Shown in pieces: positions 13,613 through 49,265 of a stretch of DNA of 64,000 nucleotides. The stretch is from an uncultured delta proteobacterium (lineage in GTDB: Bacteria > Desulfobacterota > WTBG01 > CAIYCZ01 > CAIRTM01). The notes below the pieces were generated by a model, which saw only the letters and a program-made list of their open reading frames with translations, did not search any database and was not told where the DNA came from. A program made the translations under genes and the position numbers. Positions within the stretch are counted from its first letter, which is position 1, and every line of letters starts with the position of its first letter. Location of the stretch: contig CAVRBJ010000002.1 of the NCBI GenBank assembly GCA_963718965.1, positions 7,936 through 71,935 of the forward strand. Direction: 5' to 3'.

Positions 13613-13641
13613 GATATAGACTCCAAGAGATTCTTTGTCAA
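13613..13641 (-). promoter_or_regulatory. putative sigma-70 promoter of the dcw cluster (Pmra)
   Basis: The minus strand reads TTGACA (13641-13636), a 17-nt spacer, then TATATC (13618-13613). The candidate MraZ boxes begin 10 nt downstream. Confidence 0.45.
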
Positions 13642-13971: not shown

Positions 13972-15022
13972 ATGCAGACAATCAAATTCCTCTGTAAAAT
14001 CAATATGATCATGCTGCTCATGCTCCCTTTCCGGGGAACAGTGCCGGTAATGCTCTGCCACGCCGGGCAGCAGTCATTCACCGTACAGGTCATGTCCGGC
14101 TCCAATAAAGAGGCGGCTTCACGGTTTGCTGAAGAACTTATACACAAGGGATTTGATGCCTCTATTGCTGAACGTACAGAAAAAGAAAAGCCTGTATACA
14201 AGGTCTCTTGTGGGCAATTTTAAACACAGAAAAGATGCTGCACAGCTTTATGAAGAGTTGCGCATGCAGGGTATTGAAGGCTGGATAACGCAGGTACTTG
14301 AGCCGTCTGCGCAGGAACACGATGAGGAAAAAACCGCGCCGGTACTGCCACAGCACCATGAAACAGCAGGAGTGAAAAAGGCTGAGACTGCGGCGAAGCC
14401 TGAGGCTGCACCCTCCCCAGCTGGAGAAGAGAAGCCTTTTGTTCTTATCATAAACCCTGTTCCGACATTTGCAGAAGAGGAAACACCGGCCGCAGCTTCA
14501 ACAAAAAAGGCGGATACACCGGCTTTTCAACCTGCAAAAACATATAAATATTTCAATCCCGGGGACAAGACCATCCATATCACCTCGAGCCTTGCTACAG
14601 TCCCTGTGCACTACCAGAAACAGATAGGGGAAATCGCCATATACCCTGTTTATTTTAAAAGCGTGAACCTGCGGGATATGAGCATGAAGGTGGACATTGA
14701 AGGCGCAGACAAGGATGTGATTCTTGAAGGCCTCACCCAACCAGGGCGGGTGCCGACTGCCCAGGCAGTCCGCGATTTTGAAACCGGACTTGAGTCAGCA
14801 CCCTTGCGCATCAACTATTATCCGAAACGCACCGATCCTGACGGAACGCTGCACGGCAGCCTTTTTTTTAAAGATGGAGCATCCGTTGAATGCGACATGG
14901 TCCGGCGCGGGCTTGCCGCATGCGAGGACGACAACCTTCCGTGGTATCAGCATAAATCCTGCGCTGATACTGCCAGCCAGACATCCGGTCAAACACGCCC
15001 GTCCGCGGAACCAAAACAGTAA
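13972..15022 (+). CDS. SPOR domain-containing protein, one frame break near 14210
   Basis: ORF 13972..14223 has a hydrophobic N-terminus and then FTVQVMSGSNKEAASRFAEELIHKGFDA...YKV. The SPOR fold continues in ORF 14126..15022 as VGNFKHRKDAAQLYEELRMQGIEGWI. After that come a Pro/Ala/Glu-rich linker and a ~190-aa C-terminal domain I do not recognise. Confidence 0.7.
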
Positions 15023-15271
15023 AAAATCATATGGCTCGAAGGGATAAGCACAGTCAGGCTGTGCAGGCAATGGCTGTAGCTGCACATACAATAAGCCGCA
15101 TCGAGACGCCGTGACATCTGCATGCGAGAGGGCACGTAAACAGCTATCCTGATCTGCGCCGCAGTGAATCGTTTATAAAAAACTTTTTTTATGGTATGAA
15201 ATGCCGATTAACAATATGCATGCTCGGCTCATGGCTCAGGGGCCTTTTTGACAAACAAGGAGATAGTGTAC

Positions 15272-17004: not shown

Positions 17005-17031
17005 ACCCGGCACAGGTGCCGGCTGGGTGTA

Positions 17032-17877
17032 CTACGAATGACCGCATTGTTCCAGAAAACCAACCACATCATCTATGGTCGCCTGGGGCGTTGAGGCGCC
17101 GGCGGTGATACAGACGGTTGCAGAACCTTCAAACCAGGCGGGATCGATATCATCTTTTGACTGGATCCAGTAGCTGCGCGGATTTAAGTCACGGGCGATT
17201 TCATACAACCGCAGGGTATTGGCGCTTGACCGTGAACCGATCACCAGCACCACATCACATCCTTTGGGCAGTGTTTTTATTTCCTGCTGCCGGGTGGTTG
17301 TTGCTTTGCAAATGGTATTGCAGACCTCAAGCTCCTTAAAATGCGGCCGCAGCGCATCGACAATAGCCTGCACATTCTCTGCCTTCTGCGTAGACTGCAC
17401 GACCACGCCTGCCCGTTCAACGCCCTCTACCTCAGCCCAGGGTATATGTTCTGCCGAATCAATAATAGTGACCGGAGCGTCAATCTGCCCCCGTATACCC
17501 TGCACCTCTTCATGATCACCATCGCCGATTATGATAACATGCAAGCCCCGCTTGTGAAAATCATCAACGATTGTATGAATCTCCTTAACCATGGGGCATG
17601 TAGCGTCAACGATGCTATAGCCGCGCCGCTGCGCATCTTCAACTATATGCTTTGCCGCGCCATGGGCGCGAATAAGCAGCGTCTTGCCCCTGCCGTCGCC
17701 AAGTGCATCCACCTTTCTGACGCCTGCAGCCTCTACCTGTCGCACAACATCCTCATTGTGAACGATATCACCCAGCATTTCCACCCTGACGCCCTGCCGG
17801 GCAGTGTCGAGGGCCGTTTTAATGGCCCGCCGCACGCCGAAACAAAAACCCGCTGACGGTGCAACTGTAATTTTCAT
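17032..17877 (-). CDS. ispH: 4-hydroxy-3-methylbut-2-enyl diphosphate reductase
   Basis: Intact 281-aa ORF with MKITVAPSAGFCFGVRRAI, IVHNEDVV, DATCPMV and NTICKATTTRQ (the three Cys ligands in typical IspH context). Confidence 0.92.
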   Translation of the reverse strand: MKITVAPSAGFCFGVRRAIKTALDTARQGVRVEMLGDIVHNEDVVRQVEAAGVRKVDALGDGRGKTLLIRAHGAAKHIVEDAQRRGYSIVDATCPMVKEIHTIVDDFHKRGLHVIIIGDGDHEEVQGIRGQIDAPVTIIDSAEHIPWAEVEGVERAGVVVQSTQKAENVQAIVDALRPHFKELEVCNTICKATTTRQQEIKTLPKGCDVVLVIGSRSSANTLRLYEIARDLNPRSYWIQSKDDIDPAWFEGSATVCITAGASTPQATIDDVVGFLEQCGHS

Positions 17878-18074
17878 GGGTTATATCCTTGCGTATATCC
17901 TTTTATAGTGCCGCATGTACTGCCATTCCAGCTGGTGCTGTCTGCCCTGCCGGCTCAATGCATGTCAGCTTATATCCCAGGCCACACAACAGCACAAGAG
18001 GCTTTTAGAACATTTTTCTTTTACTGTAGACTGCTCTTTTTAATAATGAACATCTTCCGAAAAAAAACTCCTAT

Positions 18075-18140
18075 CCGTTCGCCCTGAGCCTGTCGAAGGA
18101 TCCACTTCCGTTCATGGTTCGACAAGCTCACCACGAACGG
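18075..18140. repeat. REP-like nested palindromic element
   Basis: The sequence ccgttcgccctgagcctgtcgaagga...ccgttcatggttcgacaagctcaccacgaacgg has CCGTTCG/CGAACGG termini and an internal CGTTC...GAACG. Its translation is the junk-peptide type VVSLSNHER/RQAQGER seen in ORF 18021..18314. It lies in a non-coding gap. Confidence 0.5.
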
Positions 18141-18589
18141 GATTGCCATGTATGGAGAATTCGGCTGCAAAATAAAGAAAAAAGCTCTGGTGCATAGGCC
18201 TTTAGCTGTTTGTAAAAAACATGTCTGAAGACCCAATACTGTCTCTATGCGGGTCAAAAGAAAAGGCCCGATGCACAATGCATCGGGCCTTTTACGTACA
18301 TCGCTTGACTGCAAGTGCAGTCAGCATACGGTCAGCAGGAAGGTATTATAACTTCACCTTGACCGTTCCGCATGCTTCGGTATGCATGTCGCCGTAGGTG
18401 ACGATAAAGGTATAGTCCCTCTTCTCAAGCTGGAACGGACGTGCGAAGCCAAAACCCAATATTAATCTCTTGCCGATTTTAATATGGATAAGGTCATTGA
18501 TGGCTTCCGTACCCCAATCGATAGAGATGGGCCGATCGAACTCAACACCGCTTCCCTCTCAGCTATAATCACAAAAGGCGAAAAAGGAT

Positions 18590-19625
18590 TTACAAAAGTA
18601 AGCGTTTAAAAATAGTCCCGGGAATGACTCTCAGATTCTGTTCGCACTCCGGAGGAGTAACATTGTCACTTTTAATGCCTGATACCAGGCCCAGGAAATT
18701 ATACATGGGTATGGTTTCAAACTGTACTACGCTGTCATTATCCTTTGTGAATTTATCCTGGGGAATCATGGCAAACGGCAGCGTTGCTATATCCTGTCCT
18801 GAGCCTTCATAGACAAGATAGGTGCCATTGTCAACATCGGGGAAATACTCGGGAAAAGCTGCAAGCGTTGCCTTGTTCGGCTGAGCAATGGTTATAGCCT
18901 GCGTACCGCGCAAGCCGGTGGCAAAGCAGTCGAAAACAATCGGGCCGGCTGAGTAATTGTCAGTTGCACTGTCAATGACAACATCATAGGTGCCGTTTGG
19001 TACAGAAGGATCCTTGTAATAGGGATTGTCAACGCATACGCAGTTGGCAGGACCCGAGATATTATCCGGGGTACACTGTGCAAAAGGAGGAGCATCTTCA
19101 ACACAAAGCTGCTTAGCGTTTACATCTTCGATGCACTGGCAATTCGGTGCTGAATCATTGTCGCACAGAGTAAATGTCTCGTTGTCTATGCTTGAATTGT
19201 CAAAACACACTGTTGTTACAGTTGCATTATCATAGGTAAACTTCCAATCTCCAACCCAATCCGCACATTCTGCTTGATCGCGACCGGCGGAGGCGTACAG
19301 GTTGTATGGCAGGTAAGGCAAGACGATGAAGCGCCATGAGCTACAACCAGGTTGCATGCGCCCACATTACCAGTGGGGTGGCATACGATACATGTAGATG
19401 AAGTAACATTTTTACCGGGTACTGAGCCCGGATGGCATGCGCCGCAAGCGACCGATACACTGCTATGCGTTGTGTGCCAGCGCCAGTGCCGCCTGCAAAT
19501 GCATGGCATGCCAGGCAGCCGCCGTCCGGTGTTGATGTTACATTGTCATAAGCATAACCCTGCTGCGCCCCGGCGAACAACAGTGCCGCGAGTAGCATAA
19601 CCCCTGTGAGTACTAGCTTTTTCAT
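18590..19625 (-). CDS. secreted c-type multiheme cytochrome-like protein with a Cys-rich C-terminal domain, at least two frame breaks (near 19490 and 19290); may extend to 18346
   Basis: AGGAGG RBS and signal peptide MKKLVLTGVMLLAALLFAGA. Four CxxCH motifs (CLACH, CGACH, CIVCH, CLTCH) are spread over ORF frames 19341..19625 and 19216..19509. ORF 18590..19357 then gives a Cys/Asp/Asn-rich 250-aa domain. A further open 70-codon stretch without a start codon (18349..18558, ...DYTFIVTYGDMHTEACGTVKVKL) looks like more C-terminus. Confidence 0.6.
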
Positions 19626-20575
19626 TCTTCTCTCCTCCTAAATAGTGTTATTAGTGAACAAACCTGAAAAAAACAAAAATTATTATATTCTAGCATCCAA
19701 TGAATGCATTATTTGGAATATAACTAATAGGTTTAGTTAGTAATGAAGGAAATGTCAACTGCTTTTTTTTATTATTTTTATTCTTTTATACCAGTATTCT
19801 ACTATCAAAAAAAACCTGCGTCTTATTTTATTGTAAAATCAGCCACGTCCTTCTGAGAGCAGCGAAGAATCTGTAAAGTGCTGCAATTTTATAGCCAGGG
19901 AAACCAGCTATCATGTCCGCCGTAGCGGATTTATGACTACACTTTTTCAACAACCAGAAATCAATCGATTTATTGACCCGGATAAACTCTGCTTAGCACA
20001 GTTTCTGGCTGTTTACTAACAGTAACACTTTTATGCTTGCATGGTTTCAAAAAACTTTTGCTACAATGAATTTTTTTTTGCGCCTTGACGCTTCCATCCA
20101 CAGGTGCAAATAAAAAAGCTAAAAACAACTGCAATCAGCCGATCAAAACCAATAAGGCGGTTTTAGTATAGTCTTAATCGGCGCTAACAGAAAAAACTTG
20201 AGTGGAAAATAAGCAGATGGCTAATCGTATTTAATACCCATACAACACCGTTTCTTTTTCTTGCTGCGAGAAAGGGTATGGCAGTGGTTCCCGACTTTTT
20301 CTCAAAGGCGAAAAAAAGCAGAGATGAAATGCTGGATTGCATTCTGACACCGCAATGCAATTTACTGCAGCTTGCCTTTAATTTTTTTACTGGCAAAGAG
20401 CCTAAACACTGCTTCTTTTTATTTTAACCGGATTCAAAGCTGATTGATTCAAGAAGCCTGTATTGACGAATAATTAATTATAAGTTAAAACTATCATTAT
20501 GGTAGATGGTTTATACGATTGAGGGTTTTCATTCCAGTAAAAGTCTGCTTAATATTTCCGAAGGAGGATTATGTG

Positions 20576-34851: not shown

Positions 34852-36370
34852 ATGAAAATCCAGGTAAAAAAAGGCTATATTGCCGCTGAACGGAGCGAGG
34901 CGGTTGTGGCGGGCGTATTTGAAGGCACAAAAAAACTTGCCGGCGCTGCAGCTGCCCTTGACTGGGCTGGGGGCGGTTTAATTTCCGGCATGCTCAAAAA
35001 CGGCGACTTCACGGGCAAATTGTGGAAAACCGCTGCCCTGTATCCCGATAAAGAGCTGCACCTGAAACGGATCGTACTGGTAGGGCTTGGAAAGGAAAAA
35101 GATTTCACCAGCGACAGGCTCCGGGGTGCAGCATCGGCGGCTGCACGGGCCGTGCGCGACCTTGGCGTTACAAGCATGCTGCTGCCCCTTGACTTTGCCA
35201 CTACGACATTCAGCTCTCACGACACAGCGCGGGCTCTCGTGGAAGGCGTGCTGCTCGGGCTGTATCAGTTTAAAGAATTTAAAACACAAAACAATGGCAA
35301 CGGCGGCAAGCCCTTCACGGCATGCACGCTGCTGGCAGGCACAGCCGCCGGCCTTGCGGCCGCAAAAAAAGGCGCGGCACATGCCCAGGTCCGTGTCGCA
35401 GGCGGTCTGCCTTGCCCGCGATCTTGTAAACAGGCCGTCAAACACGGCAACGCCGGGGCATCTTGCACAGGCGGCAAAATCGATAGCCGCGCAGCATGGC
35501 ATCACCTGCACGGTGCTGAACGGACAGCAGGCGAAAAAACTCGGCATGGGAGCTTTTTGCTCAGTGGCCCGCGGCAGCGATGAGCCTGCACGCTTTATCA
35601 TCCTTGACTACAAGCCGCACACGAAAAAAACCCCGCCCACCATCGTGCTCATCGGCAAAGCCATCACTTTCGACAGCGGCGGCATTTCAATTAAACCCTC
35701 ACAGGGCATGGAGGAAATGAAAACCGACATGGCAGGCGGCGCGGCAGTGCTCGGGGCCATGCAGGCGGCAGCGGCATTAAAACTCCCGGTGCATGTCGTG
35801 GGAATCGTACCGGCCACGGAAAACATGCCCAGCGGCCATGCTCTCAAGCCAGGTGACATCATAAAAGCCATGTCAGGCAAAACCATAGAAATAATCACCA
35901 CCGATGCCGAGGGCCGCCTCATTCTTGCCGACAGCCTTACCTATGCGCAGCGCTATAAGCCTGCGGCTATTATCGACCTCGCAACGCTTACCGGGGCATG
36001 CATCATTGCGCTGGGGCATGCTGCATCAGGCGTCATGAGCACGGATGAAAAACTGACGAAAAAAATTCAGGCCGCTGCTGAGGCAACCGGCGAAAAAGTC
36101 TGGCCTCTGCCGCTGTATGAAGAGTATGCAGAGCAGCTGAAAAGCGATGTGGCAGATCTTAAAAACTCAGGCGGCAGGCCTGCCGGCGCCATAACGGCAG
36201 GATGCTTTTTAAAGGAATTCGCCGGCACTATCCCCTGGGCTCATATCGACATTGCCGGCACGGCCTGGGCTGCAAAGCCCCTGCCCTACACGCCAAAGGG
36301 AGCCAGCGGTATCGGCGTCCGGCTGCTGGTGGAACTGATCGAACAGTGGGGAGATACCGCAGCGCTGTAG
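34852..36370 (+). CDS. pepA: leucyl aminopeptidase (M17), one frame break near 35385
   Basis: The N-terminal domain lies in ORF 34852..35583. The catalytic domain lies in ORF 35087..36370 with VCLARDLVNRPSN, KAITFDSGGISIKP, TTDAEGRLILAD and LATLTGAC. Confidence 0.9.
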
Positions 36371-36406: not shown

Positions 36407-37708
36407 TTGTATTCTGCTGCTCGGCTTTACCGCGGGGGGATGAGCATGAAAAGCGCTTTAAAAACGACATCAGCAGCAAACAGGCGGCGATTCGGCATTA
36501 CCGAGCTTCTGCACTATATCGGGCCGGGGCTTCTTGTGACCGTCGGGTTTATCGACCCGGGCAACTGGGCCGCAAACATGGCAGCCGGCTCACTGTTCGG
36601 CTATAAGCTGCTCTGGGTCGTGACGCTCTCGACCATCATGCTCATCTTCCTGCAGCACAATGCCGCGCATCTAGGCATCGCAACCGGCCTGTGCATTTCA
36701 GAAGCGGCAACCATCCATCTGCCCGCCCCTGTTTCCCGCCTGGTGCTGGGCTCTGCCGTAATTGCCTCAGTGTCCACGGCCCTTGCGGAAATACTGGGCG
36801 GGGCCATCGCCCTGAACATGCTGTTCAATATCCCCATCAGGGCAGGTGCTGTCATCATCACGGCACTGGTTCTGTGGATGCTGCTCTCAAACTCGTACAA
36901 CAGGCTTGAAAAACTCATCATCGGGTTCGTATCGCTTATCGGTTTGTCCTTTGTATTCGAACTGGCCCTGGTGAATATCGACTGGAGCACGGCCCTTCAC
37001 AGCTGGGTCATGCCGTCACTGCCCGATGGCTCCATTGTGATCGTCATGAGCGTACTGGGTGCTGTGGTTATGCCCCACAACCTGTTTCTCCATTCCGAAA
37101 TTATCCAGAGCAGGCAGTGGAATCTTGAAGACAGCGCCACGATAAAGCGTCAGCTCAGGTATGAATTCCTCGACACGCTTTTTTCAATGGGCGTCGGGTG
37201 GGCAATCAACAGCGCCATGATACTGGTGGCTGCAGCAACATTTTTCAGCAGATCGGTTGAAGTCACTCAGCTGCAGCAGGCGCAGGAAATGATGATACCC
37301 CTGCTTGGACAGGCGGCCTCAGTGGTATTTGCGCTGGCCCTTCTTTTTGCGGGCATTGCATCATCGGCAACTGCCGGCATTGCGGGCGGCTCGATCTTTG
37401 CCGGGATATACGGCAAGCCCTATGATGCCGCATCCCTTCAATCTCGCATCGGCGTGGGCATTACGCTCATCGGGGCTGTGATCATTATCTTTTTTGTAGA
37501 AAAACCTTTTCAGGGGCTGATCCTTTCGCAGGTGCTGCTCAGCGTCCAACTCCCGCTCACCGTTTTCCTCCAAATATACCTCACGTCATCGGCAAAGGTC
37601 ATGGGCCCGTATAAAAACTCGCTCCCCGACAGCATCATCCTGTGGCTCCTTGCCGCTATCGTTTCAGCGCTGAATGTTCTGCTTCTGGTGGATTTTCTCA
37701 AACAGTGA
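36407..37708 (+). CDS. mntH: NRAMP-family divalent metal (Mn2+/Fe2+) transporter
   Basis: Intact polytopic ORF with GPGLLVTVGFIDPGNWAANMAAGS and MPHNLFLHSE. The true start is probably the ATG at 36446 (MKSALK). Confidence 0.88.
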   Translation: MYSAARLYRGGMSMKSALKTTSAANRRRFGITELLHYIGPGLLVTVGFIDPGNWAANMAAGSLFGYKLLWVVTLSTIMLIFLQHNAAHLGIATGLCISEAATIHLPAPVSRLVLGSAVIASVSTALAEILGGAIALNMLFNIPIRAGAVIITALVLWMLLSNSYNRLEKLIIGFVSLIGLSFVFELALVNIDWSTALHSWVMPSLPDGSIVIVMSVLGAVVMPHNLFLHSEIIQSRQWNLEDSATIKRQLRYEFLDTLFSMGVGWAINSAMILVAAATFFSRSVEVTQLQQAQEMMIPLLGQAASVVFALALLFAGIASSATAGIAGGSIFAGIYGKPYDAASLQSRIGVGITLIGAVIIIFFVEKPFQGLILSQVLLSVQLPLTVFLQIYLTSSAKVMGPYKNSLPDSIILWLLAAIVSALNVLLLVDFLKQ

Positions 37709-37734
37709 CGCATGTGTCATGTTGTCTACCACGC

Positions 37735-39402
37735 CTACAACTTCAGCACTTCACAGTCTTTGATCATTGAAAGCGCCTCGTCGGCTGACTGAGCGGTTTT
37801 GAGCATCTGCAGCAGGTGCCGGTTCCGTGCGGCTTCGGCGGCAAGCCCGAGTATCTGGACATGGGTGCTTGAATCTTGCGCAGGCGTCAGGATCAAAAAA
37901 ACACATTCTATGGGCTTATCGGTTTTTACATCAGCCACACCCTGCTTTGTTATGCCGATGGCGATTATCGGCGCATGCAATACTGTCAATACGCGCATGG
38001 GGAAATGCCACTGCTTCATTAAAAAACGTTGAGCCCTGATTCTCGCGCTCAAGCACTGAAGCCAGGATATCTTCATAGCTGGCGTCAGTGCCTGTGCAGG
38101 ATGCTTTTACAAGCCTTGCAATTATTTCCTGCTTTGTTACCGCATGCTCCCGCATCACAATGCGCTCCGCAGCTAAAAGGCTGCTCAGCGTAAGGCTGGC
38201 CGCCGGGTTCGGTTATCGCCCCTGCAGTCGTAATCACTGGCGGTTCTTCTGCAGGCTTGGGCATAGCAGCTTCCCCTTTGCGGGTATCAAATACCACAAT
38301 CGTAATGCCGCGCGCGGCTTCCGTCAGGCGCTGTACAATGGTCTTGCTGCCAAGCAGCTTCTGCCAGAGCGACTGATGTCTCGGGCTGCCGATGACAATA
38401 TGACCGACACGATACTCACGGGCAAAGCGCAGTATGGTATCGACAACATCCTCTCCCTTGTAGGTGAAGACCATGGCTCCGAGCTGTTTTGCCAGGGTGA
38501 GCGTTCCTGAAAGTTGGCGCTGAACGCTTGAGTCTATGGCCGTGGGATCTTCACGCGGAGTCTGGACATATACGGCATACCAGTTGCGGTTGAGCTTTCC
38601 TGCAAGCCGCGATGCATACCGCAGCAGCATCTCGCTGTTGGGCCCGTTTGAGCTGAGGCAGGCCATGATCTGGTCGGGGGCAATGGTTGCTTCCTCCTCA
38701 AGCGGCTCACGCCTGCGGTAATCAATCTGGGAGGCAAGCTCCCGCAGGGTGAGCTCCCGGAGCTGCTCAAGATTATTGGTGATGAAAAAATTTCCAAGGG
38801 CCGTTTCGATGCGCGATTGGGGATAAATTTTACCTTCCCGTAGACGCTGCTGAAGGTCTTCCGTGGCAAGATCGATATTGACGATCTGGTCAGCTTCGGC
38901 AAGCACGGAATCCGGGAGCCGCTCACGCACCTTCACTTGAATGGACTTTTCAATCGTGTCGTACAGGCTCTCCAGATGCTGAACATTCATGGTGGTGATG
39001 ACATGAATCCCCACGGAGAGCAGATCTTCAATATCCTGATAGCGTTTTGCATTACGACTGCCGGGCACATTGGTGTGGGCCATTTCATCGATGAGCGCGA
39101 CGCCCGGCCTGCGGGCGATGATGGCGTCCACATCCATCTCTTCGACCGTGATGCCCCGGTACTCCTGCCTCAGGCGCGGGATAACTTCAAGCCCTTCGAT
39201 GAGCTGCGCGGTTTCAGCCCGTCCATGGGTTTCCACCAGGCCCACGACAACATCGATGCCTTCATTTTTAAGACGATGGCCCTTCCTGCAACATTTGATA
39301 GGTCTTGCCGACGCCGGCGCAGTACCCCAGATACACTTTCAGTTTGCCGCGTTGCGAGTGTCGTATCAACCGTAAAAAAGAGCTTGTTTTATCTTCCGCC
39401 AT
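37735..39402 (-). CDS. KdpD N-terminal sensor domain / Usp domain protein fused to a PTS EIIA type-2 (PtsN-like) domain; no histidine-kinase domain; three frame breaks near 39270, 38205, 37965
   Basis: The hand-translated start [41 protein letters not shown] joins ORF 38085..39245 (VETHGRAET, DEMAHTNVPGSRN, NVQHLESL, then a Usp-like IMACLSSNGPNSE...GHIVIGSP). After a PKPAEEPP linker it continues as LSSLLAAERIVMREHAVTKQEIIARLV...NEAVAFPHARIDSI (ORF 37931..38158) and APIIAIGITKQGV...ECVFLILTP...HVQILGLAAE (ORF 37735..38076). Its start overlaps the kdpC end. Confidence 0.75.
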
Positions 39403-39993
39403 AAACTCTCACCTTATGCGATTTAACGACATATTGAGCATGCAACACATTCACCCTCGACTCGCCGAAAACCAGCAGATCGCTTCCTTCCGTATGCTCC
39501 TGTATTTTTTTCTGAACATACCTCAAGGCTTATGTTCCTTGCTTTGGCAATGCGCGGAGCCTGCAAAAGCGCGTTCTGAAGGCTTATATGGGGATCAAGC
39601 CCGCTGCCCGACGCGGTTACCGCATCGGCAGGCACCAGAGCATCACGGGCAAGGCCGTTCTCCTGCCGGTAGTCTGCAACGCGCTGCCCGACCGCTTCGA
39701 GAAGCTTTTTTGAAAGCGGCCCCAGATTGCTGCCGCCGGAGGCTGCGGCGTCATACCCGTCGCCTGCTGCCGACGGGCGCGGATGAAAATACTGCGGACC
39801 CGCAAATCCCTGGCCAATAAGACTTGAGCCAACAACACGGCCTTCCTCGTATGAGCAGCGATCCACCTGCCTGATGCGGAAACATCAGCTGCCCCAAGCC
39901 CCATACAGCCAGTGGATACAGGCAGCATACAATAAAGGCAAGCGAGGCAGTTGCAATCGCTGCCGTGCGAAATTCTTTTATAAGAGCTTTCAT
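39389..39993 (-). CDS. kdpC: K+-transporting ATPase subunit C, two frame breaks near 39852 and 39508
   Basis: [46 protein letters not shown] (ORF 39751..39993). Then [15 protein letters not shown]...[10 protein letters not shown]...[11 protein letters not shown]...[13 protein letters not shown] (ORF 39423..39866). A hand-translated tail [13 protein letters not shown] ends at 39389. The second break coincides with a 7-nt homopolymer at 39505-39511. Confidence 0.85.
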
Positions 39994-40009: not shown

Positions 40010-42032
40010 CTATACAAGATGTAAAGCATTGACGAGAATATCGATTACTTTTATCCCAACAAACGGCACGACCAGACCGCCGAGGCCGTAAATTAACAGA
40101 TTTCTACGCAGCATCACGGAAGCCCCCACTGGCCGGAACTGAACACCCCGCAGGGCAAGCGGAATCAGGGCAATGATGATAAGGGCATTGAATATCACGG
40201 CGCTTAAAATGGCGCTTGAAGCAGACTGAAGCCCCATGATATTGAGGGGCGCAATAACGGGAAAAACGCCGATGAGCATGGCCGGTATGATGGCAAAGTA
40301 TTTAGCCACATCATTGGCAATGCTGAACGTGGTGAGCGCCCCGCGGGTGATGAGCATCTGCTTGCCGATCTCTACGATTTCAAGAAGCTTTGTGGGGTTG
40401 GAGTCAAGATCGACCATATTGCCAGCCTCTTTGGCCGCCTGCGTACCCGTATTCATGGCAACGCCAACATCAGACTGCGCCAGTGCCGGAGCATCGTTGG
40501 TGCCGTCGCCGGTCATGGCTACCAGATGTCCCTCGGCCTGCTCCCGACGAATGAGGGCAAGCTTATCCTCGGGCTTTGCTTCGGCCACAAAATCATCAAC
40601 CCCTGCCTCAGCCGCAATGGCTGCGGCGGTTAATCGGTTATCGCCGGTAATCATGATGGTCTTGATGCCCATGGCCCGGAACCGGTCAAAACGGTCCTTC
40701 AAGCCCTCCCTTGACAATATCTTTCAAATGGATAACACCCAGAACTTTTGACCCATCAGCAACAACAAGGGGCGTACCCCCGGACTGTGAAATCCGGTTA
40801 AGCGCTGCCTGTACATCAAACGGAAAGGCCTTTCCGATAAAATCACATACTGCTGAAGCAGCGCCTTTTCGTATCTTGCGGCCATCTATATCCACACCGC
40901 TCATGCGCGTCTGTGCGGTAAAAGGCTGAAACTGCGCGTGCGGCAGCTCTGCAATGGAGCGGCCCCGGAGGCCATGCTGTTTTGCCAGCACCACAATGCT
41001 TCTGCCCTCAGGCGTCTCGTCGGCAAGGGAGGCAAGCTGGGCAGCGTTTGCCAGCTCCTGCATGGCCACACCTTCCGCGGGGATGAACTCGGTTGCCTGC
41101 CGGTCCCCCAGTGTTATGGTGCCGGTCTTGTCAAGCAGCAGCACGTCCACATCGCCCGCCGCTTCTACGGCCCGACCGCTCATGGCAAGCACATTTTTCT
41201 GCACCAGCCGGTCGATGCCCGCAATGCCGATGGCGCTTAACAGCCCGCCGATGGTTGTCGGAATGAGGCAGACCAGCAGCGCGACGAGCACGGTAACGGA
41301 AAACGACATGCCTGAATATAGCCCGAAAAATTTCAGGCTCATGATGACTACCAGGAAGATGATCGTCAGGGCCGACAGCAGGATGGTCAGGGCTATTTCA
41401 TTGGGCGTCTTCTGCCGCTTGGCCCCCTCGACAAGGTTTATCATCCGGTCAAGAAAGCTCTCGCCCGGATTGGCCGTGACAATGACTTTAATCCGATCTG
41501 ATAGCACACGCGTTCCGCCTGTCACAGCGCTGCGATCACCTCCTGCTTCTCTGATGACTGGTGCGGACTCGCCCGTAATGGCTGACTCATCGACCGTGGC
41601 AACGCCTTCTACGATCTCGCCGTCGGCCGGAATCACCTCACCAGCCGAAACAAGCACCATATCGTGTTTCCGAAGCTGCTCGGCCGGCACCTCCTCAAGT
41701 TCACCGTTTTCATGGATACGGTTTGCCAGGGTTTTCGTGCGGGTTTTGCGCAGTTCATTTGCCTGTGCCTTACCGCGGCCTTCGGCCATGGCCTCGGCAA
41801 AATTGGCAAACAGCACAGTAAACCAGAGCCAGAGCGTTATTTGTAGGATAAAGTCAAATGTTTCATTGCCGGATTTATAAAAAAGTCCGGCAGTCGTAAT
41901 TGCAGCGCCGACTTCGGTCACGAACATAACGGGGTTTTTGAGCATGGACACAGGGTTCAGCTTCCTGAATGAATTCACAACAGCTGGAAGCATTATTGCC
42001 GTATCAAAAAGTGAGCGGGCTTTAGCAGCCAT
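40010..42032 (-). CDS. kdpB: K+-transporting P-type ATPase subunit B, one frame break near 40710
   Basis: ORF 40686..42032 has [12 protein letters not shown] (the DKTGT phosphorylation site). ORF 40010..40717 has ITGDN and [18 protein letters not shown]. Confidence 0.92.
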
Positions 42033-42044: not shown

Positions 42045-43779
42045 CTAAAATACAACCGCAGATTTAGTCATGAGAAAATGTTCAACTACCGGGCCAAGTG
42101 AAAGCACCGGCACAAAGGTCAGTGCGCCCACAATTAGAATTGTCCCCACCAGAAGCACGACAAATGTCAGCCCCGCAACCGGAAAACTCCCTTCGCTGCG
42201 AGGGAGCAGCTTCTTTTTTGCCAGATTCCCTGCAAGGGCAAGTATGGGCACAATCATGAAAAAGCGGCCAAAAAGCATGGCACAGGCAAGGGTCGTGTTC
42301 AGCCACGGGGTGTTTGTGTTCAGGCCTGCGAGAGCGCTTCCGTTATTGCCGGTGGCCGATGAATATGCATAAAGTAACTCGCTCAACCCGTGGGGCCCCT
42401 GATTATTCAAACCTGCAAGCCCCCAGTTGCTGACCAGCCGCCCAGGCGGTAAAGCCAAGAATGCTGAATATCAAAACCAGTACGGCAAGGGCGCTCATCT
42501 TTACATCATAGGCCTCGATCTTTTTGCCGACATATTCGGGCGTGCGGCCTACCATGAGCCCTGCAAGAAAAACCGTCAGCACAACAAACACCAGCATGCC
42601 GTAAAGCCCCGCGCCCACGCCCCCGAAAACAACCTCTCCAAGCTGGATATTTAAAAGCGGTATCAGACCACCCAGGGGCGTAAAGGAATCATGCATGGCA
42701 TTGACCGCGCCGCAGGAGGCATCCGTGGTCACCGTTGCAAAAAGCGCGGAATTAAAAATTCCGAAACGGACTTCCTTGCCTTCCATGTTGCCGGCTGAAG
42801 GGTCAATGCCCAGGGCATGATAGCGCGGATTCCCCGCACTTTCAGCCCACCAGCAGACAGAGAAGCTTCCAAGAAAAAGAACCAGCATTGCCGCCCAGAC
42901 CGCCCAGCCGTGCTTCTGGTTTTTCACCATCCTGCCCAGGTAGTAGGTTAAGGCGCTCGGAATTAAAAATATTGCCAGCATTTGCAGAAAATTTGCCAGC
43001 GGGGTCGGGTTTTCATAGGGGTGCGCGGCATTGGCGTTCATAAACCCGCCGCCGTTTGTACCGAGCATCTTTATAGCAACCTGTGATGCCATGGGACCCT
43101 GCGCAATGGTCTGCGCTGCTGCAGCCTGCTGCAGCGGCTGATCAAGAGCCTGCACGGTCACGTACGGCTTGAAATTCTGAACCACGCCCTGGGAAACAAG
43201 AAAGACGGCAAACAGCAGGCTTATCGGCAGCAGCAGGTAGAGATTGATCCGAACCAGATCAATCCAGAAATTGCCGATGGTTCTGGCGCTGTGGCGGCTA
43301 TGCCCCGCACAAGCGCGGCTGCTACTGCAATGCCTGCGGCGGCGGAGACAAAATTGTGCAGGGTAAGGCCTACCATTTGGGAAAAATACGACAGGGTCGA
43401 CTCACCGCCGTAGCTCTGCCAGTTGGTATTGGTGGTAAAGCTCACCGCCGTATTGAAGGCAAGGTCGGGGCTCACGGGCCCGAACCCCTGCGGGTTGAGC
43501 GGCAGAAAGTGCTGCAGCCGAAGCACTGCGTAAGTAAAAAGGAGGCTTACCAGGCTGAAAACAAACAGCGATACGGCATACTGTTGCCAATTTTGCTCGT
43601 CTTCGCTTTTTATGCTGAGAAGTCTGTATAAAAATTTTTCGCAGGGCTGCAGCCACCGGATCAAGAAATGTTTTTCCGCCCGCGTCAAGAACGCTTGCCA
43701 GATAAACGCCAAGCGGCTTTGTCAGGGCCAGCAGCAGGCCCACAAACAGCGCAAGCTGTATCCATCCATATATATCCAT
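42045..43779 (-). CDS. kdpA: K+-transporting ATPase subunit A, at least three frame breaks (near 43670, 43270, 42440)
   Basis: Four collinear ORF fragments: 43402..43779, 43221..43712, 42403..43185, 42045..42458. Motifs: [57 protein letters not shown]. Confidence 0.9.
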
Positions 43780-43794: not shown

Positions 43795-43878
43795 TTAAAA
43801 TATTTCCGGTCTGATAATAGAAACAAAAAGATAGATGATAAGTACGACCCCGATTATGCCGACACCGATTTCCATCAT
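43795..43878 (-). CDS. kdpF: K+-transporting ATPase subunit F (27 aa)
   Basis: Hand translation gives MMEIGVGIIGVVLIIYLFVSIIRPEIF. It is a single TM helix ending in the KdpF-type YL...RPExF tail. It ends 15 nt before the kdpA ATG and is not in the ORF track (too short). Confidence 0.75.
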   Translation of the reverse strand: MMEIGVGIIGVVLIIYLFVSIIRPEIF

Positions 43879-43881: not shown

Positions 43882-43965
43882 TCAAATCCTTTCACAGGCC
43901 AGTGCATAGAGAATGCACAGGCCGAAAAAAATCACTGCTCCAACGATAAACAGCATATCGATCAT
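43882..43965 (-). CDS. second KdpF-like 27-aa membrane peptide
   Basis: Hand translation gives MIDMLFIVGAVIFFGLCILYALACERI. It is preceded by AGGAAGAG and ends 3 nt before the kdpF ATG. The tail LYALxxER(I) resembles E. coli KdpF ...LVYALINAEAF. Confidence 0.55.
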   Translation of the reverse strand: MIDMLFIVGAVIFFGLCILYALACERI

Positions 43966-43993: not shown

Positions 43994-45805
43994 TCAGCCC
44001 GTTTGAGCGCAACCGTAAACGTGCTGCCTTCTCCAACTGTGCTTTCCACAGTTATACATGCCGCCGTGGGCTTCGACGATCTCGCGGGCTATGGCAAGCC
44101 CCAGCCCTGCGCCCGCCTGGGCTTGCTGGCCGGGGACGCGAAAAAACTGGTCAAATATATTATTGAGATACTCCCGCGGTATGCCGGTGCCGGTATCGGC
44201 AACGGAAAAAACAACCCGTTGTTCATCAGCATGCGCTGAAATGGTGACCGCACCACCGGCAGCGGTATGTTTCAGCGCATTTGAAAGCAGATTATCAAAC
44301 ACATGCACGATCCGCGATGCATCCGCCATGACCTCAGGCAGATCATCCGGTACATCCGTTTTCAAGCTGATGCCTGCGTCCTGAAAAGCCGTTGCGAAAT
44401 GCTCTGCTGCCTGCGCAGCTATCACCTGCGGCGAGACAGAGGTTAAGCTCATCCGGGCTTTTCCCGATTCTATGCGGCTGATATCAAGCAGGTCTTCCAG
44501 AATGGCGTTCAGCCGGTCGCTGTCTTCCCGTGCCGCCAGAAGCAGCTCCGCCTGCTTTTCCGTAAGCGCGCCTACTTTTTCTTCCAGCAGCAGGTGTATC
44601 GCCATGCGTATTGAGGTAAGCGGTGTTTTCAGCTGATGCGAAACGGTGGAAACAAGTCCCCGCTTCATGTCATCATTGTGCTGCTGCTGGGTGACATCCT
44701 TAAAAGACAGCAGCACGCCGGTTGTCTGATGCCGAGTGTCAAGAACAGGCACGGCATGGGGCTGAAAAAAATGCTCTGTGCCGTTCACAAACAATTGAAA
44801 AACTTTTTTCTGCTCCCGGGCTGTAATCCGCCGTCAGCCAAGCTGGCATCGGCATGCAATGTGCGTATCCACTCATGCGGGCTGTCTTGAATTTTGCCGC
44901 CGGCGCGCAGCCCGAAAAATTTTCTGGCTGATTCCGTGGCCGCATCTATGGTGCCGTCCATATCTACAATTGCCGTTATGTCGGGCAGATTCTTAAATGC
45001 CTGCTGGGTTGAGAGCTGCATCAGGGCAAGCTTTGCCTGATCGCTGCGCCTGAACTCGCGCAGGCTCTGCACCATATCGTTAAATGCTTCCGACAGCCGG
45101 CCGATTTCATCATGGCTGCCGACCTGAATGCAGAGATTGAGATTGCCCTTTTTTATCTCATCGGCCGACTGAATGAGTCTGCTGATCGGGTAGAGTATCC
45201 ACTGCCGGGTAAAAATGATAAAACTTACGGCAACAAGAGCACCGACAAAAAGCAATAAACCCATTTGCTGCCGGGCTGATGCCGCTTTTGCACGCGCCAG
45301 ATCATTTGCATCGCTCATATTCTGCTGGTTCAGATGCAGGACCTCATCTGCGGCCTTCTTAGTCTGCTGGAAGAGCGGAAACAGTTTCTTGAAATACATG
45401 TCCCGCCGGGCGTCTTGAGAAGTATCAACGATTAAAAAATCAAGCATCACGCTGCGGTACTGCGAAAAAAGAGTGCGGATCCGCTCCGCCTTCTCTCGAC
45501 TCTCCGGGAACAGTTATGTTATTCAGCTCAATTTTAAGAGCCTTCTCAAACTTCAGCTCATTTTCACTTATTATGTCTTTGCCTTCCTTATAGCTGAGCA
45601 GGCAGAAAAGAGCCCCGCTGTCCATCCTCTCCAGGGCTTCTTTCATGTCCTGACAGGCGATAACGCTGCGGTAGTTCTCGCGCAGGATCACATCGATTGA
45701 CTGGCCCAGATCGGAAACCAGGTAAATGCCCTGACTGCCGATAAGTACAAGTATGACCAGCAGCCCGCCAAAGCCTATTGATAATTTTCTTCGAAGATTA
45801 AACAT
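43994..45805 (-). CDS. sensor histidine kinase (periplasmic helical sensor, HAMP, PAS, HisKA, HATPase_c), two frame breaks near 45465 and 44800
   Basis: Fragments 45440..45814, 44785..45450 and 43994..44794. Features: two TM helices, HAMP (IKKGNLNLCIQVGSHDEIGRLSEAFNDM), H-box VSHQLKTPLTSI, N-box LLSNALKHT, G-boxes DTGTGIP / GAGLGLAIA. Start is taken at the second ATG (MFNLRRK), 9 nt after AGGAGG. Confidence 0.85.
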
Positions 45806-45832
45806 AGCATCCATCCTCCTGCATCAATGTTT

Positions 45833-45850
45833 ATGCATAGCATGTGCCAA
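45833..45850 (-). promoter_or_regulatory. sigma-54 (-24/-12) promoter upstream of the kinase-kdp operon
   Basis: The minus strand reads TTGGCACATGCTATGCAT. The GG and GC dinucleotides have exactly the consensus TGGCAC-N5-TTGCW spacing. It lies ~28 nt upstream of the kinase start and directly downstream of a sigma-54 activator gene. Confidence 0.7.
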
Positions 45851-45911: not shown

Positions 45912-45956
45912 TTGAATTGTGCAAGAAGGAAAGCTTAAAGGTGTTGCAATTTGCAA
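45912..45956 (-). promoter_or_regulatory. possible enhancer (UAS) sites for the adjacent sigma-54 activator
   Basis: Two related 13-mers, TTGCAATTTGCAA (45944-45956) and TTGAATTGTGCAA (45912-45924), are built from palindromic TTGCAA halves. They lie ~65-110 bp upstream of the -24 element. Confidence 0.3.
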
Positions 45957-45978: not shown

Positions 45979-47334
45979 CTAAATACCGTAGTCTTTGCGC
46001 TTGCGCCACAGGGTTGCCTGATCAATGCCGAGCACGTCGGCAGCCTCTTGCAGGGATTTTGTGGAGGCAAGTACGCGGCGTATATGCTGCTCTTCGATCT
46101 GTTTCAGCGGGACCGGGTCACCGAGCTGCGGCAACGCTTCGCCGGGTGCGATGCAGGCAGGAAGATATGCGCTTCCTACCATGTCCGTCGGGCAGAGTAT
46201 GGCTGCACGCTCAATCACATTGCGCAATTCCCTGATATTGCCCGGCCATGAATAGCCCTTAAGGGCTTGGAGAGCATCATCGGTAAAGCCTTTAAACAGA
46301 CGATGATTGTTGCGGCCGAAAAAGCTAAGCAGCCGCTGTGCAAGAGCTGCAATGTCATCCTGCCGCTCGCGCAAAGGCGGAATCTCGATTTGAATCACGT
46401 TGAGCCGGTAAAACAAGTCCTCGCGAAAGCGGCCTTCTGCAACCGCCTGCTCAAGGTCGATATTGGTGGCGGCAATAAGGCGCACATCCGCCTTGCGGGG
46501 CGCATAATCGCCCACGCGCTCATACTCCCTGTCCTGAATAAAGCGCAGCAGCTTGGGCTGTATTGAGAGCGGCACGTCACCGATTTCATCAAGCAGCAGC
46601 GTGCCTCCTTCGCATGCCGCTATCCTGCCGGGGTTGTCGCGCACAGCGCCGGTGAAGGCCCCTTTGACATGTCCGAAAAGCTCGCTCTCAAGCAGCTCCG
46701 GGGTAAGGGTCGGGCATGACACAACGCCGAAAGGTTGCTGCGCGCGCCTGCTCCAGACATGCAGCATGCGGGCCAGCACGGTTTTCCCTGTGCCGCTCTC
46801 ACCGCGCAGCAAAACAGTCGCATCAGTGGTCGCAACCTTGCGGGTTTCATTGATTGCAAGCTGCATCTTTGAGCAGGTTGTTGAAAAGTCTAATTCCGGG
46901 GTTAAGCGGCACATATCCTCCTGCAGCGCAGAAACTTTCTGTTCAAGGGAACGAATTTCTGCAACCTTATTGACGGCAAGCTTCACCTGCGCCGGTGTAA
47001 AAGGTTTGGGGATATAGTCGGTTGCGCCGCGGCGCATGGCCTCGACTGCCGTATCGATGGACGCATAGGCCGTAATGACGATAATTTTCAGACAGGAATT
47101 TTTTGCCAGCAGCTGCGGTATAAGATCAAGTCCGTTTGCCGTGCCAAGGCGCAAATCAACAAAGGCAAGCTCAAACGTGCTGCGTGACGCTTCAGCCACG
47201 GCATCATCAAAGTTGCTGACAGCAACAACTTTGTAGCCTTCCGTTTCCAGGCACACGGCAAGTGTTTTGCGGATATTTATTTCATCATCCACAACAAGGA
47301 TATTTAAGGTATGCAGGGTGTTTGTATCAGCCAT
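45979..47334 (-). CDS. sigma-54-dependent response regulator (NtrC family: receiver, AAA+, Fis-type HTH)
   Basis: Intact 451-aa ORF. Receiver ILVVDDE...FVDLRLG; AAA+ GESGTGKTVLA, GAFTGA, ESELFGH; C-terminal HTH LQEAADVLGIDQATLWRKRK. Confidence 0.92.
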   Translation of the reverse strand: MADTNTLHTLNILVVDDEINIRKTLAVCLETEGYKVVAVSNFDDAVAEASRSTFELAFVDLRLGTANGLDLIPQLLAKNSCLKIIVITAYASIDTAVEAMRRGATDYIPKPFTPAQVKLAVNKVAEIRSLEQKVSALQEDMCRLTPELDFSTTCSKMQLAINETRKVATTDATVLLRGESGTGKTVLARMLHVWSRRAQQPFGVVSCPTLTPELLESELFGHVKGAFTGAVRDNPGRIAACEGGTLLLDEIGDVPLSIQPKLLRFIQDREYERVGDYAPRKADVRLIAATNIDLEQAVAEGRFREDLFYRLNVIQIEIPPLRERQDDIAALAQRLLSFFGRNNHRLFKGFTDDALQALKGYSWPGNIRELRNVIERAAILCPTDMVGSAYLPACIAPGEALPQLGDPVPLKQIEEQHIRRVLASTKSLQEAADVLGIDQATLWRKRKDYGI

Positions 47335-47354
47335 GTTTGATGTTTATTTAAAAA

Positions 47355-47927
47355 CTATACCTTCTTTGCAATCATGCTGGCAAGAGCGTTATAGCCGCCT
47401 TTGCCGTCGGGCTCGATGCGCTCGTGGTAGAACAGGACGAACAGATCCAGAAACGACTCGAGCAGCTCATTGGGTTTTAATAAAAAATCGGGGTTATGAG
47501 GCCCATCGAAACGCTGCTGGTCGAGCGTGTAGGTCTCGAAAAAAAGAAGTCCGCCCTTTTTAAGCCCGGCTTTTATGCGCGGCACAAGATCGCGCTCAAG
47601 AAAGTAGAAGTTAAGAATGACGTCAAAATGGTTTTCCGGAAACGGCCATTCGAGCATATCTGCAGAAACAGCAGCAATTGAAACCCCCTTATATCGGGCA
47701 TATTCACGGGCATGGGCAACGGCTGCCTGCGAGCGGTCAATACCTGTCACGGTATAGCCGCGTTGCGCAAGAAAAACGCTGTTCTGCCCGGCGCCCATGG
47801 CGATATCAAGGGCCGTTCCTGCCAATTCCAAGCAAGCTGCATGCTCCAGCAGAAATGCTGCCGGCTCCGGAACATCCGCCAGAGTCTTGATGCTGTACTT
47901 TTCTTCCCATGCCCGTTCATTGCTCAT
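47355..47927 (-). CDS. class I SAM-dependent methyltransferase
   Basis: Intact 190-aa ORF with motif I ALDIAMGAGQNSVFLAQRGYTVTGIDRS. Confidence 0.75.
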   Translation of the reverse strand: MSNERAWEEKYSIKTLADVPEPAAFLLEHAACLELAGTALDIAMGAGQNSVFLAQRGYTVTGIDRSQAAVAHAREYARYKGVSIAAVSADMLEWPFPENHFDVILNFYFLERDLVPRIKAGLKKGGLLFFETYTLDQQRFDGPHNPDFLLKPNELLESFLDLFVLFYHERIEPDGKGGYNALASMIAKKV

Positions 47928-48045: not shown

Positions 48046-49265
48046 TCACTTTTCAAGCAGGCTCTGCTCATAAGGAAAAGGCGACAGCGCTCTTTTCAGC
48101 ACCCCGTGCACAAATGATATGGCAATGCCGTAGTTGGTAATGGGTACATTCAGGGATTGCGCATCGCCGATGCGCGCAAGCATCTCCTGCCGGTTTATCA
48201 TGCAGCCGCCGCAGCTGATGACAAGGGCGTACTGCGAAATATCCTTATCCACCAGCGGCCCGGCATTGGTCTCAAAAACAATATTTTTGCCCGTATAGCT
48301 GCGTATCCAGCGGGGCAGTTTCACCCGGCCGATATCATCGGGCATGGGGTGATGGGTGCAGGCCTCGAGAATCAGCACCTTGTCCCGTCCTGCAGACTGT
48401 CGATGCGGCGCACGCCGCGCACGAATTCCGCAAGGTCGCCCTTCTGCCGCGAAAAAAGAATCGAGAAGGTCGTAAATTTGACATCATCCGGTATATCGCC
48501 CGACACCTTCAAAACAACCTGCGAGTCACATATTACCAGAGCGGGTTTTCTGCCAAGCCCCCGCAGCGCATACTCTATCTCGCGCTCCTTGGCAGTAACG
48601 GCCACGGCATCATTATCAAGAATATCGCGAATGATCTGCACCTGCGGCAGTATCAGCCTGCCTTTGGGCGCCCCGAGGTCGATCGGGACAATCAGCAGCA
48701 CGATATCGCCATGGCTTATAAGATCGCCGATAATCGTTTCGCGCTCAACAAATAGCTTACTGCCCGCCTCGACGATAAGCTTTTTGACCGCATCGATATT
48801 GTCGCCCGTGCGGCATGAAATGGCTGCATACGGCACACCAAGGGCTGCAACCTTCTCGATCTGTGCAGTGTCAGGCTGCATCCGATCACTTTTATTGAAG
48901 ACTACCAGCACGGCCCTGCCCTGCCCCAGCAGTTCACGGATCAGAGCTTCATCATCCGCGTCAAAATCTTCCCCTGTCGTGACAAGCACGGCAAGGTTAA
49001 TCTTGCGGATTATCTGGCGCGTGCGCTCCACGCGCAGCAGGCCAAGCTCGCCCGTATCGTCAAGGCCTGCCGTGTCATACATATAAACCGGCCCGATGCC
49101 CGATATCTCCATGGCCTTGCCGACAGGGTCTGTCGTGGTGCCCGCCACATCGGATACTATGGCTGTGCTCTGCCCGGTCAGCGCATTAATAAGCGATGAC
49201 TTGCCAACATTGCGTTTGCCGAAAATGCCTATATGGAGCCTGTTGCCGACCGGCGTCGTATTCAT
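48046..49265 (-). CDS. hydF: [FeFe]-hydrogenase H-cluster maturation GTPase HydF, one frame break near 48385
   Basis: ORF 48372..49265 has GTPase motifs GKRNVGKSSLINALTG, DTAG, NKSD. ORF 48046..48378 has the HydF cluster-binding EACTHH...SCGGCM. The break coincides with a GGG/CCC run; ...SLQDG(D)KVLILEACTHH is restored by adding one G. Confidence 0.85.

Follow-up and report, generated by a model that had tools for sequence, protein, structure and literature searches.

What does a KdpD protein do once its histidine-kinase half is replaced by a domain of the phosphotransferase system (PTS)? The question is raised by the last gene of a kdp operon in a stretch of 64,000 nucleotides from an uncultured delta proteobacterium (contig CAVRBJ010000002.1; hereafter the window), which the initial annotation had read as a KdpD sensor module fused to an enzyme IIA (EIIA) domain resembling PtsN, the EIIA of the nitrogen PTS (PTS-Ntr). 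In Proteobacteria PtsN modulates K+ uptake via KdpD and TrkA, by a mechanism that is debated. The corrected gene is predicted to encode a soluble short KdpD in which a PtsN-like EIIA domain stands in for the transmembrane (TM), GAF and histidine-kinase half, and the fusion probably ties the control of K+ uptake to carbon/nitrogen signalling.

The fusion gene and its family

In the list of open reading frames (ORFs) of the window the gene is split into four pieces, 39402..39268, 39245..38085, 38158..37931 and 38076..37735. The breaks were located by DNA alignment of the window to two intact homologous loci, L001 and L004 (L-numbers denote homologous kdp loci fetched from public assemblies, P-numbers homologous proteins), and consist of one surplus base each, near 39279, 38207 and 37976. 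Without these three bases an uninterrupted ORF of 554 amino acids (aa) with one terminal stop is obtained, so three single-base corrections suffice, as had been claimed. The peptides quoted in the initial annotation can all be read on the minus strand of 37700-39450, distributed over three frames. The corrected protein is 89–91% identical to its intact homologues P0001 and P0002 (89% to P0002). Its features are the following.

37735..39402, minus strand: fusion gene for KdpD N-domain, Usp domain, flexible linker and PtsN-like EIIA, 554 aa after correction
38724..39354, minus strand: KdpD N-domain, aa 17-226; PF02702, 309.1 bits (cut-off 26.1), full model
39327..39301, minus strand: Walker A motif GYCAGVGKT in the N-domain
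39092..39072, minus strand: Walker B motif IDEMAHT in the N-domain
38346..38648, minus strand: Usp domain, aa 252-352; PF00582, 25.6 bits, barely over the 24-bit cut-off
38180..38285, minus strand: variable Pro/Ala/Glu-rich linker, aa ~373-405, including the second frame break
37756..38179, minus strand: PtsN-like EIIA domain, aa 408-548; PF00359, 76.8 bits (cut-off 27), E=2e-21, model positions 2-143 of 144
38005..37991, minus strand: FPHAR motif, with the putative phospho-His codon at 37999..37997

All three Pfam profiles with which the initial annotation proposed to check the translation score above cut-off on the corrected protein, which bears out the KdpD N-domain and the Usp domain as well as the C-terminal EIIA of type 2. 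HisKA, HATPase and GAF domains are absent from it by Pfam scan. The Kyte-Doolittle mean over 19 residues peaks at 1.06, compared with 2.08 in a membrane-bound KdpD used as control; this low maximum excludes a membrane segment, and the earlier statement that the protein lacks TM, HisKA and HATPase parts holds. Among the NCBIfam models, those for KdpD and for a non-kinase KdpD match residues 8-374; the score with the latter, NF038185, is 351.2 bits over residues 8-369 and lies below the cut-off of 550. An AlphaFold2 model of P0002, calculated from a 63-sequence alignment, contains three folded domains (mean pLDDT 79.8, pTM 0.45).

The gene is indeed the last one of the kdpFABC operon. It does not overlap the 3′ end of kdpC, as had been supposed, since a 6-nt spacer lies between the end of kdpC (stop codon TGA, 39411..39409) and the start of the fusion gene (ATG at 39402). 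Downstream of it no convincing candidate for an intrinsic terminator is seen, and a convergent Nramp gene comes next.

That a single protein is encoded was judged from its relatives. In a search of 5.8 billion proteins the best 120 matches are all 544–576 aa long, cover 97–100% of the query at 62–91% identity and match PF02702 as well as PF00359, and representatives of 50%-identity clusters add about 13 more full-length clusters with identities down to 35%. Altogether more than 130 intact proteins of 535–594 aa (35–91% identity) combine KdpD_N, Usp and EIIA in a single ORF. Among species-representative genomes the full fusion occurs in Aminicenantes, in Thermodesulfobacteriota and metagenome-assembled genomes (MAGs) named 'delta proteobacterium', in Smithella, in Tepidisphaerales/Phycisphaerales and in Chlorobiales; according to NCBI names, Hydrogenedentes carry it as well. 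The nearest full-length fusions in GTDB species genomes, at 63–66% identity, belong to Aminicenantes, Thermodesulfobacteriota and the 'delta proteobacterium' MAGs, and a non-fusion short KdpD, that of L017, is nearer still with 69%. Between the corrected gene and L001, the closest intact locus, the ratio of nonsynonymous to synonymous substitution rates (dN/dS) is 0.10 overall, with 0.05 in the N-domain, 0.05 in Usp, 0.16 in EIIA and 0.33 in the linker. Because of the more than 130 intact full-length homologues and the dN/dS of 0.10, the fusion is regarded as a genuine, multi-phylum family under selection, of which the window copy is an ordinary member. The same architecture is found next to kdp genes in related Desulfobacterota, where the initial annotation had proposed to look for it, and in several other phyla; it is no peculiarity of the window genome but belongs to a widespread family.

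A reading as two separate genes was rejected. It disagrees with the finding that every intact homologue is a single ORF; moreover, the EIIA reading in frame 2 opens only past a stop inside the linker and the first possible start codon, a GTG, lies within the domain.

The frame breaks could in principle be real, with the gene or the whole operon being lost in the window organism. For such a decaying pseudogene speak the three breaks in the gene and the 15 frame-breaking indels in 9.2 kb of the operon (some 1.6 per kb when compared with an intact homologous operon), which affect five of its six genes and lie outside long homopolymer runs. Nevertheless, nearly all of these indels are single-base, mostly insertions, and a similar density is met in unrelated window genes, of which pepA-like and hydF-like ones are split as well (e.g. 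34852-36370 and 48046-49265). Furthermore, there are no in-frame stops between the breaks, dN/dS remains low at 0.10, and the related long-read assembly of L004 has split genes of the same kind. Decay is therefore considered very improbable. Since the breaks are not specific to the gene but spread over operon and window, in agreement with the earlier impression that they match the noise of the window, the three that interrupt the fusion gene most likely arose in assembly. The same indel density implies that any ORF-based reading of the window needs frame correction.

Several relatives illustrate how the C-terminal part of KdpD varies. Close relatives, such as that of L017 (383 aa), stop directly after Usp. 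In L013, a delta-proteobacterial MAG (8263-19871), one kdp locus harbors two KdpD_N paralogues: the EIIA fusion is located upstream of kdpABC, right after a histidine kinase, and the second, a 708-aa protein with KdpD_N, Usp, TM and GAF parts but without DHp and CA, lies downstream of kdpC. A crude neighbour-joining tree places the fusions as a subclade of short KdpDs associated with sigma54, with a few non-fused members nested within. EIIA would thus occupy the place where other KdpD forms have their sensory parts, a pattern suggestive of input-domain swapping. As a separate observation, many representatives of ~730–780 aa (P0129, P0138-P0144, P0151-P0154 and others) match the KdpD_N/Usp query twice, at roughly residues 20-360 and 400-750, and look like tandem duplications of a short KdpD.

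In databases the fusion proteins are named 'PTS sugar transporter subunit IIA' or 'sensor histidine kinase KdpD', both of which are misleading. No description of the fusion was found in the searchable full-text literature on KdpD with EIIA or PtsN, which does not cover an older PTS genomics review (Barabote & Saier). The main text of a survey of KdpD domains (PMC11018627) names neither EIIA nor PtsN, and the terms PTS, EIIA and IIA are absent from those of its supplementary files that were covered. The fusion is regarded as an uncharacterised short KdpD of the serine-kinase type whose input domain is new, in a kdp regulon wired through sigma54. It represents a natural and strongly conserved covalent link between a PtsN-like domain and a serine kinase, in phyla distant from the model organisms.

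Domains of the fusion protein

As recognised only in 2024, the KdpD N-domain works as an atypical serine kinase, silencing the pump through phosphorylation of KdpB at Ser162 (PMC11018627). It is active on its own, and phosphorylation of KdpB requires the Walker A motif (G-X5-GKT), the Walker B residues D109 and E110, and W39 and R190 (PMC11018627). The N-domain of the fusion protein matches the PDB entry 2r8r both by sequence (228 bits) and by Foldseek (TM-score 0.94). Residue conservation was counted over 133 proteins of the fusion family: Walker A is kept in 132 of them, the Walker B aspartate in all 133 and the glutamate in 132, while Arg186, the equivalent of R190 in the adenine-coordinating pair W39/R190 of E. 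coli, is invariant (133/133). An aromatic residue follows GKT in 127/133; this is the W39 position, held by Tyr (120 proteins), Phe (6) or Trp (1), a conservative change. On the side of the target, the window KdpB reads AITGESAPV, with TGES and its putative target Ser156 at 41576..41565. As the Walker A, Walker B and arginine residues are conserved and the TGES of KdpB is kept, the N-terminal two-thirds of the fusion protein would be a pump-silencing serine kinase. The designation 'kinase-less sensor module' in the initial annotation is outdated, the N-domain being itself an atypical serine kinase (PMC11018627) and its Walker and arginine residues being nearly invariant here.

Among Usp proteins the closest structural match of the second domain is 7ji4 (TM-score 0.86 by Foldseek), the USP domain of S. 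aureus KdpD with bound cyclic di-AMP (c-di-AMP). In a provisional comparison, the published c-di-AMP motif is matched only partially in the Usp domain (CLSSxGPNS). The linker that follows is disordered over about 30 aa (pLDDT below 50 for residues 375-401), and across the family it measures 22–51 aa with 56% P/A/E/S/T.

In a PDB search with the single sequence the C-terminal domain matches PtsN entries only (1a6j, 3urr, 2a0j and 4gqx), and with a family profile the PtsN entries score 47–60 bits as against 15–31 bits for entries of the IIA-Mtl type. The structural comparison by Foldseek yields the same order, with 3urr, 1a6j, 2a0j and 4gqx at TM-scores of 0.81–0.87 ranked above IIA-Mtl; PtsN structures thus outrank sugar EIIAs, as the earlier assignment implied. 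The histidine of FPHAR aligns with that of AIPHGK in 1a6j, the structure of E. coli IIA-Ntr, where it is the phosphorylated His73, so that its proposed identity as the phosphorylatable position stands. It is conserved in 131/133 fusion proteins, and the arginine equivalent to R57 in 132/133; the signature R-E-x3-S-T...F-P-H-x-R is near-invariant among sequences with overall identities down to 35%. This conservation argues for a role of the EIIA histidine as phospho-acceptor. The domain differs in its setting from PtsN, as it forms the C-terminal domain of a protein of the kdp operon and not a free protein of ~150–160 aa in an rpoN cluster.

Operon layout and candidate sigma54 control

Upstream of the fusion gene the window contains the following elements.

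45979..47334, minus strand: sigma54-dependent response regulator, intact, with REC, AAA+ and HTH_8 domains
about 165 nt, minus strand: regulator-kinase intergenic region, containing the putative promoter and upstream sites
45912..45956, minus strand: two palindromic upstream sites, TTGCAAATTGCAA (45956..45944) and TTGCACAATTCAA (45924..45912)
45834..45850, minus strand: sigma54-type -24/-12 element TTGGCACATGCTATGCA, ~44 nt ahead of the start codon of the kinase gene
43994..45814, minus strand: membrane histidine kinase (4HB-like N-terminus, HAMP, PAS, HisKA, HATPase), three frame breaks
43882..43965, minus strand: 27-aa hydrophobic ORF MIDMLFIVGAVIFFGLCILYALACERI, just upstream of kdpF
43795..43878, minus strand: kdpF, 27 aa; Potass_KdpF 28.5 bits and TIGR02115 28.2 bits, above cut-off
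42045..43779, minus strand: kdpA, several frame breaks
40010..42032, minus strand: kdpB, one frame break
39409..39993, minus strand: kdpC, three frame breaks

The regulator is matched by Sigma54_activat (209 bits), Response_reg (86 bits) and HTH_8 (31 bits) and contains GAFTGA at 46662..46645, whereas the domains of the frame-broken kinase were read by Pfam on its intact L001 orthologue. The gene order of the window recurs in L001-L007, L014-L016 and L022, that is in 11 fusion-bearing loci from four phyla. The transcription unit is taken to comprise the kinase gene, the 27-aa ORF, kdpF, kdpA, kdpB, kdpC and the fusion gene.

The -24/-12 element (GG-N10-GC) lies 40–45 nt ahead of the kinase start as mapped in nine loci, the window and eight others. 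The offsets in L006 (-133) and L022 (-128) agree with this position if one takes into account that the start is incompletely mapped there; in L044 the element is at -221. Paired TTGCA-N3-TGCAA sites are present at about -151 and -119 in the window and in L001, L004, L005 and L006 (the last after correction of the offset), L017 has both palindromes at -161/-129, and five further loci have one site each. The background frequency of these promoter and upstream-site patterns is ~0.3 per kb. The NtrC-type regulator presumably binds at the two palindromes. An OmpR-type KdpE is missing from the window by tblastn with the E. coli protein, whereas those of the fetched full-length KdpD loci whose contig extends downstream of kdpD have an adjacent KdpE, except for L048 and L073. 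In view of the conserved -24/-12 element, the upstream sites, the NtrC-type regulator and the absence of KdpE, transcription of the operon appears to rely on a sigma54 promoter and a two-component system of the NtrC type, without the KdpD/KdpE pair. The 'different wiring' of K+ sensing anticipated in the initial annotation can hence be specified: a candidate sigma54 promoter, an NtrC-type regulator and a HAMP/PAS kinase take the place of KdpD/KdpE. Across the loci this amounts to a conserved kdp regulon of presumed sigma54 dependence.

The 27-aa ORF recurs at this position in several phyla, in at least 30 kdp loci, among them kdpFABC-kdpDE loci of alphaproteobacteria, and shares the motif M-x-D...FF-x-L...Y...C-[ED]-[RK]-[IL]. 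It has no match among Pfam or NCBIfam families and may be an unannotated small Kdp subunit or a leader peptide. In L001 an extra gene of 254 aa without Pfam match is inserted between kinase and kdpF (4604-5368), which is seen neither in the window nor in L004.

Upstream of the regulator, the 87%-identical locus L004 carries trkH and trkA (1-1000), ~1 kb away and separated by an acetyltransferase gene. In E. coli, PtsN controls both K+ uptake systems, Kdp and Trk, which are near neighbours in L004. Just upstream of the response-regulator gene of the window lies a sigma70-like candidate, TTGCCA-18-TATAGT (47354-47383, minus strand, 10/12 matches); sigma70-like sites are no more numerous in that region than expected by chance. 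At the left end of the window (1-13100, minus strand) a complete dcw cluster is located, consisting of mraW, ftsI, murE, murF, mraY, murD, ftsW, murG, murC and ddl, which identifies the window as chromosomal.

Possible function and competing explanations

The observations as a whole are best explained, with a probability of about 0.55, by an EIIA input that sets the silencing of KdpFABC by the serine kinase and so couples carbon/nitrogen status to K+ uptake. EIIA is proposed as an input of the PTS-Ntr type because of its sensory position and its near-invariant histidine signature. A carrier of the NPr/HPr type, belonging to the nitrogen PTS, would phosphorylate its histidine, and the phosphorylation state of EIIA would set the activity of the serine-kinase module. 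The latter would phosphorylate the TGES serine of KdpB, a reaction demonstrated elsewhere and assumed here for the fusion, and phosphorylation of KdpB would switch KdpFABC off post-translationally. Perhaps EIIA also contacts the histidine kinase of the same operon. The net effect would be that carbon/nitrogen status is tied to K+ uptake. As everything resides in one soluble protein, the hypothesis that the PTS phosphorylation state gates post-translational Kdp silencing is a testable one.

More tentatively, and with somewhat less than even odds, the scheme may be extended to Aminicenantes, Thermodesulfobacteriota, Phycisphaerae, Chlorobiales and Hydrogenedentes. In these phyla KdpD/KdpE would be replaced by a sigma54 activator with its kinase and by a PTS-gated serine kinase for instant pump shut-off, the fused PtsN domain relaying the phosphorylation state of the phosphoenolpyruvate/nitrogen PTS directly to the Walker-type serine kinase.

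The initial annotation had compared the fusion to a Rosetta stone, in which two known partners are covalently joined. Free PtsN is reported to contact KdpD at the HisKA/DHp region in E. coli and at the GAF domain in S. fredii (PMC9239096). Both of these regions are missing from the fusion protein, which therefore does not join the known interacting surfaces and is no literal Rosetta stone; the part of the claim that survives is the functional link between PtsN and Kdp, which the fusion supports. Additional support comes from L074, a Methyloceanibacter MAG, where a free PtsN-like gene (~153 aa, GNGVALPHARLKG) follows kdpE after ~10 nt in the order kdpD-kdpE-ptsN (4430-5586). Furthermore, the fusion-bearing contig of L033 also contains lptB-rpoN-hpf-ptsN-EIIA(Man) (6022-9793), ~4 kb from the fusion gene, with no NPr/HPr gene visible in this rpoN cluster. 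If the EIIA-gated scheme is true, the PtsN-Kdp link would be ancient and reach the serine-kinase half of KdpD in addition to the histidine-kinase half.

Several points weigh against an EIIA-gated serine kinase. No gene for NPr/HPr or EI was detected in the 64-kb window or in the 84 fetched loci by tblastn with E. coli HPr, NPr and EI, and Pfam scans of 30 large window ORFs revealed no PTS gene. The domain scores 51.6 bits with the NCBIfam PtsN equivalog model (TIGR01419, cut-off 138.7), much like the 55.5 bits with the fructose IIA (fruA) model, and 44.6 bits with PRK10896 (cut-off 221); all EIIA models matched fall below their equivalog cut-offs. 'PtsN-like' is hence a label for fold and profile and does not extend to the NCBI equivalog level. 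In the kinase module, the corrected protein has a Tyr where E. coli KdpD has its adenine-stacking Trp. The pTM of 0.45 lends no confidence to the inter-domain arrangement and, together with the disordered linker, leaves a cis contact between the domains without structural support. The Usp domain, finally, could carry the true regulatory input, e.g. c-di-AMP as in D. geothermalis KdpD. A rival explanation is an EIIA fold that is never phosphorylated and is kept only as a ligand- or protein-binding module, with regulation via Usp (e.g. by c-di-AMP) or K+. The lack of a PTS carrier gene near any locus, the scores below the PtsN equivalog cut-off and the c-di-AMP-bound 7ji4 as best match among Usp proteins would fit such a protein, and the short KdpD of D. 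geothermalis is controlled by c-di-AMP (PMC11018627). It is nonetheless judged improbable, as a histidine and signature so nearly invariant would hardly be expected of a domain with neither catalytic nor phospho-acceptor use, and as ptsN and EIIA(Man) in the rpoN cluster of the L033 contig place PTS-Ntr-type components in at least one lineage.

The EIIA domain might instead act in trans by binding the DHp of the HAMP/PAS kinase of the operon, and so tune the sigma54-dependent transcription of kdp, with KdpD_N/Usp serving mainly to anchor it at the pump. Free PtsN acts on the DHp region of both KdpD and PhoR of E. coli. Binding to the HisKA region has been reported for E. coli PtsN and KdpD (PMC9239096), the genes for fusion and kinase share an operon in 11 fusion-bearing loci across phyla, and the long disordered tether would permit reach to a second protein. 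However, the operon kinase is not a transmitter of the KdpD type and shows only generic HisKA/HATPase likeness (28–36% identity), and L008, L009, L011 and L012 have no adjacent kinase within the available sequence. Action in trans is held to be unlikely; it is compatible with EIIA gating of the serine kinase, and both could operate.

Compared with the canonical KdpD/KdpE system and free PtsN, the fusion retains the N-domain with Walker A, Walker B and the arginine, followed by Usp; it is encoded together with kdpFABC, the TGES serine of KdpB is kept, and a PtsN-type EIIA with conserved histidine again appears in Kdp control. In contrast to the canonical system, TM helices, GAF, DHp, CA and KdpE are lacking, the EIIA is covalently attached and not the free PtsN of the rpoN cluster, and transcription of the operon would be of the sigma54 and NtrC type. 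Where there is no KdpE, short KdpD/Usp proteins that lack the histidine-kinase half are common (PMC11018627). With those known from D. geothermalis (PMC11018627) and from NF038185, the 'KdpD-like non-kinase potassium sensor', the fusion shares the soluble KdpD_N and Usp, the absence of a histidine-kinase half and of a nearby KdpE, and the expected restriction to post-translational action on KdpB. It differs from them by ~180 extra residues of linker and EIIA and by its proposed input, PTS phosphorylation, which would replace or add to c-di-AMP.

The loci of Bacteroidota and Verrucomicrobiota with sigma54-associated short KdpDs (e.g. those of Chryseobacterium, L040-L047) likewise hold a short KdpD in one cluster with kdpABC, a regulator of the NtrC type and a separate histidine kinase of the HAMP type, but they have no EIIA domain, and in Bacteroidota the kinase is situated downstream of the short KdpD. 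A built-in EIIA is otherwise familiar from PRD regulators of the MtlR, LicR and ManR types, DNA- or RNA-binding proteins of sugar operons with a C-terminal EIIA(Mtl)-like domain. If the proposed gating is true, the fusion would be the first example in which a PTS EIIA domain governs a protein serine kinase with a P-type ATPase as its target. It would share with the PRD regulators a PF00359-type EIIA serving as phospho-receiver that controls the protein to which it is fused, whereas the partner in the kdp operon would be a Walker-type serine-kinase module directed at a P-type ATPase.

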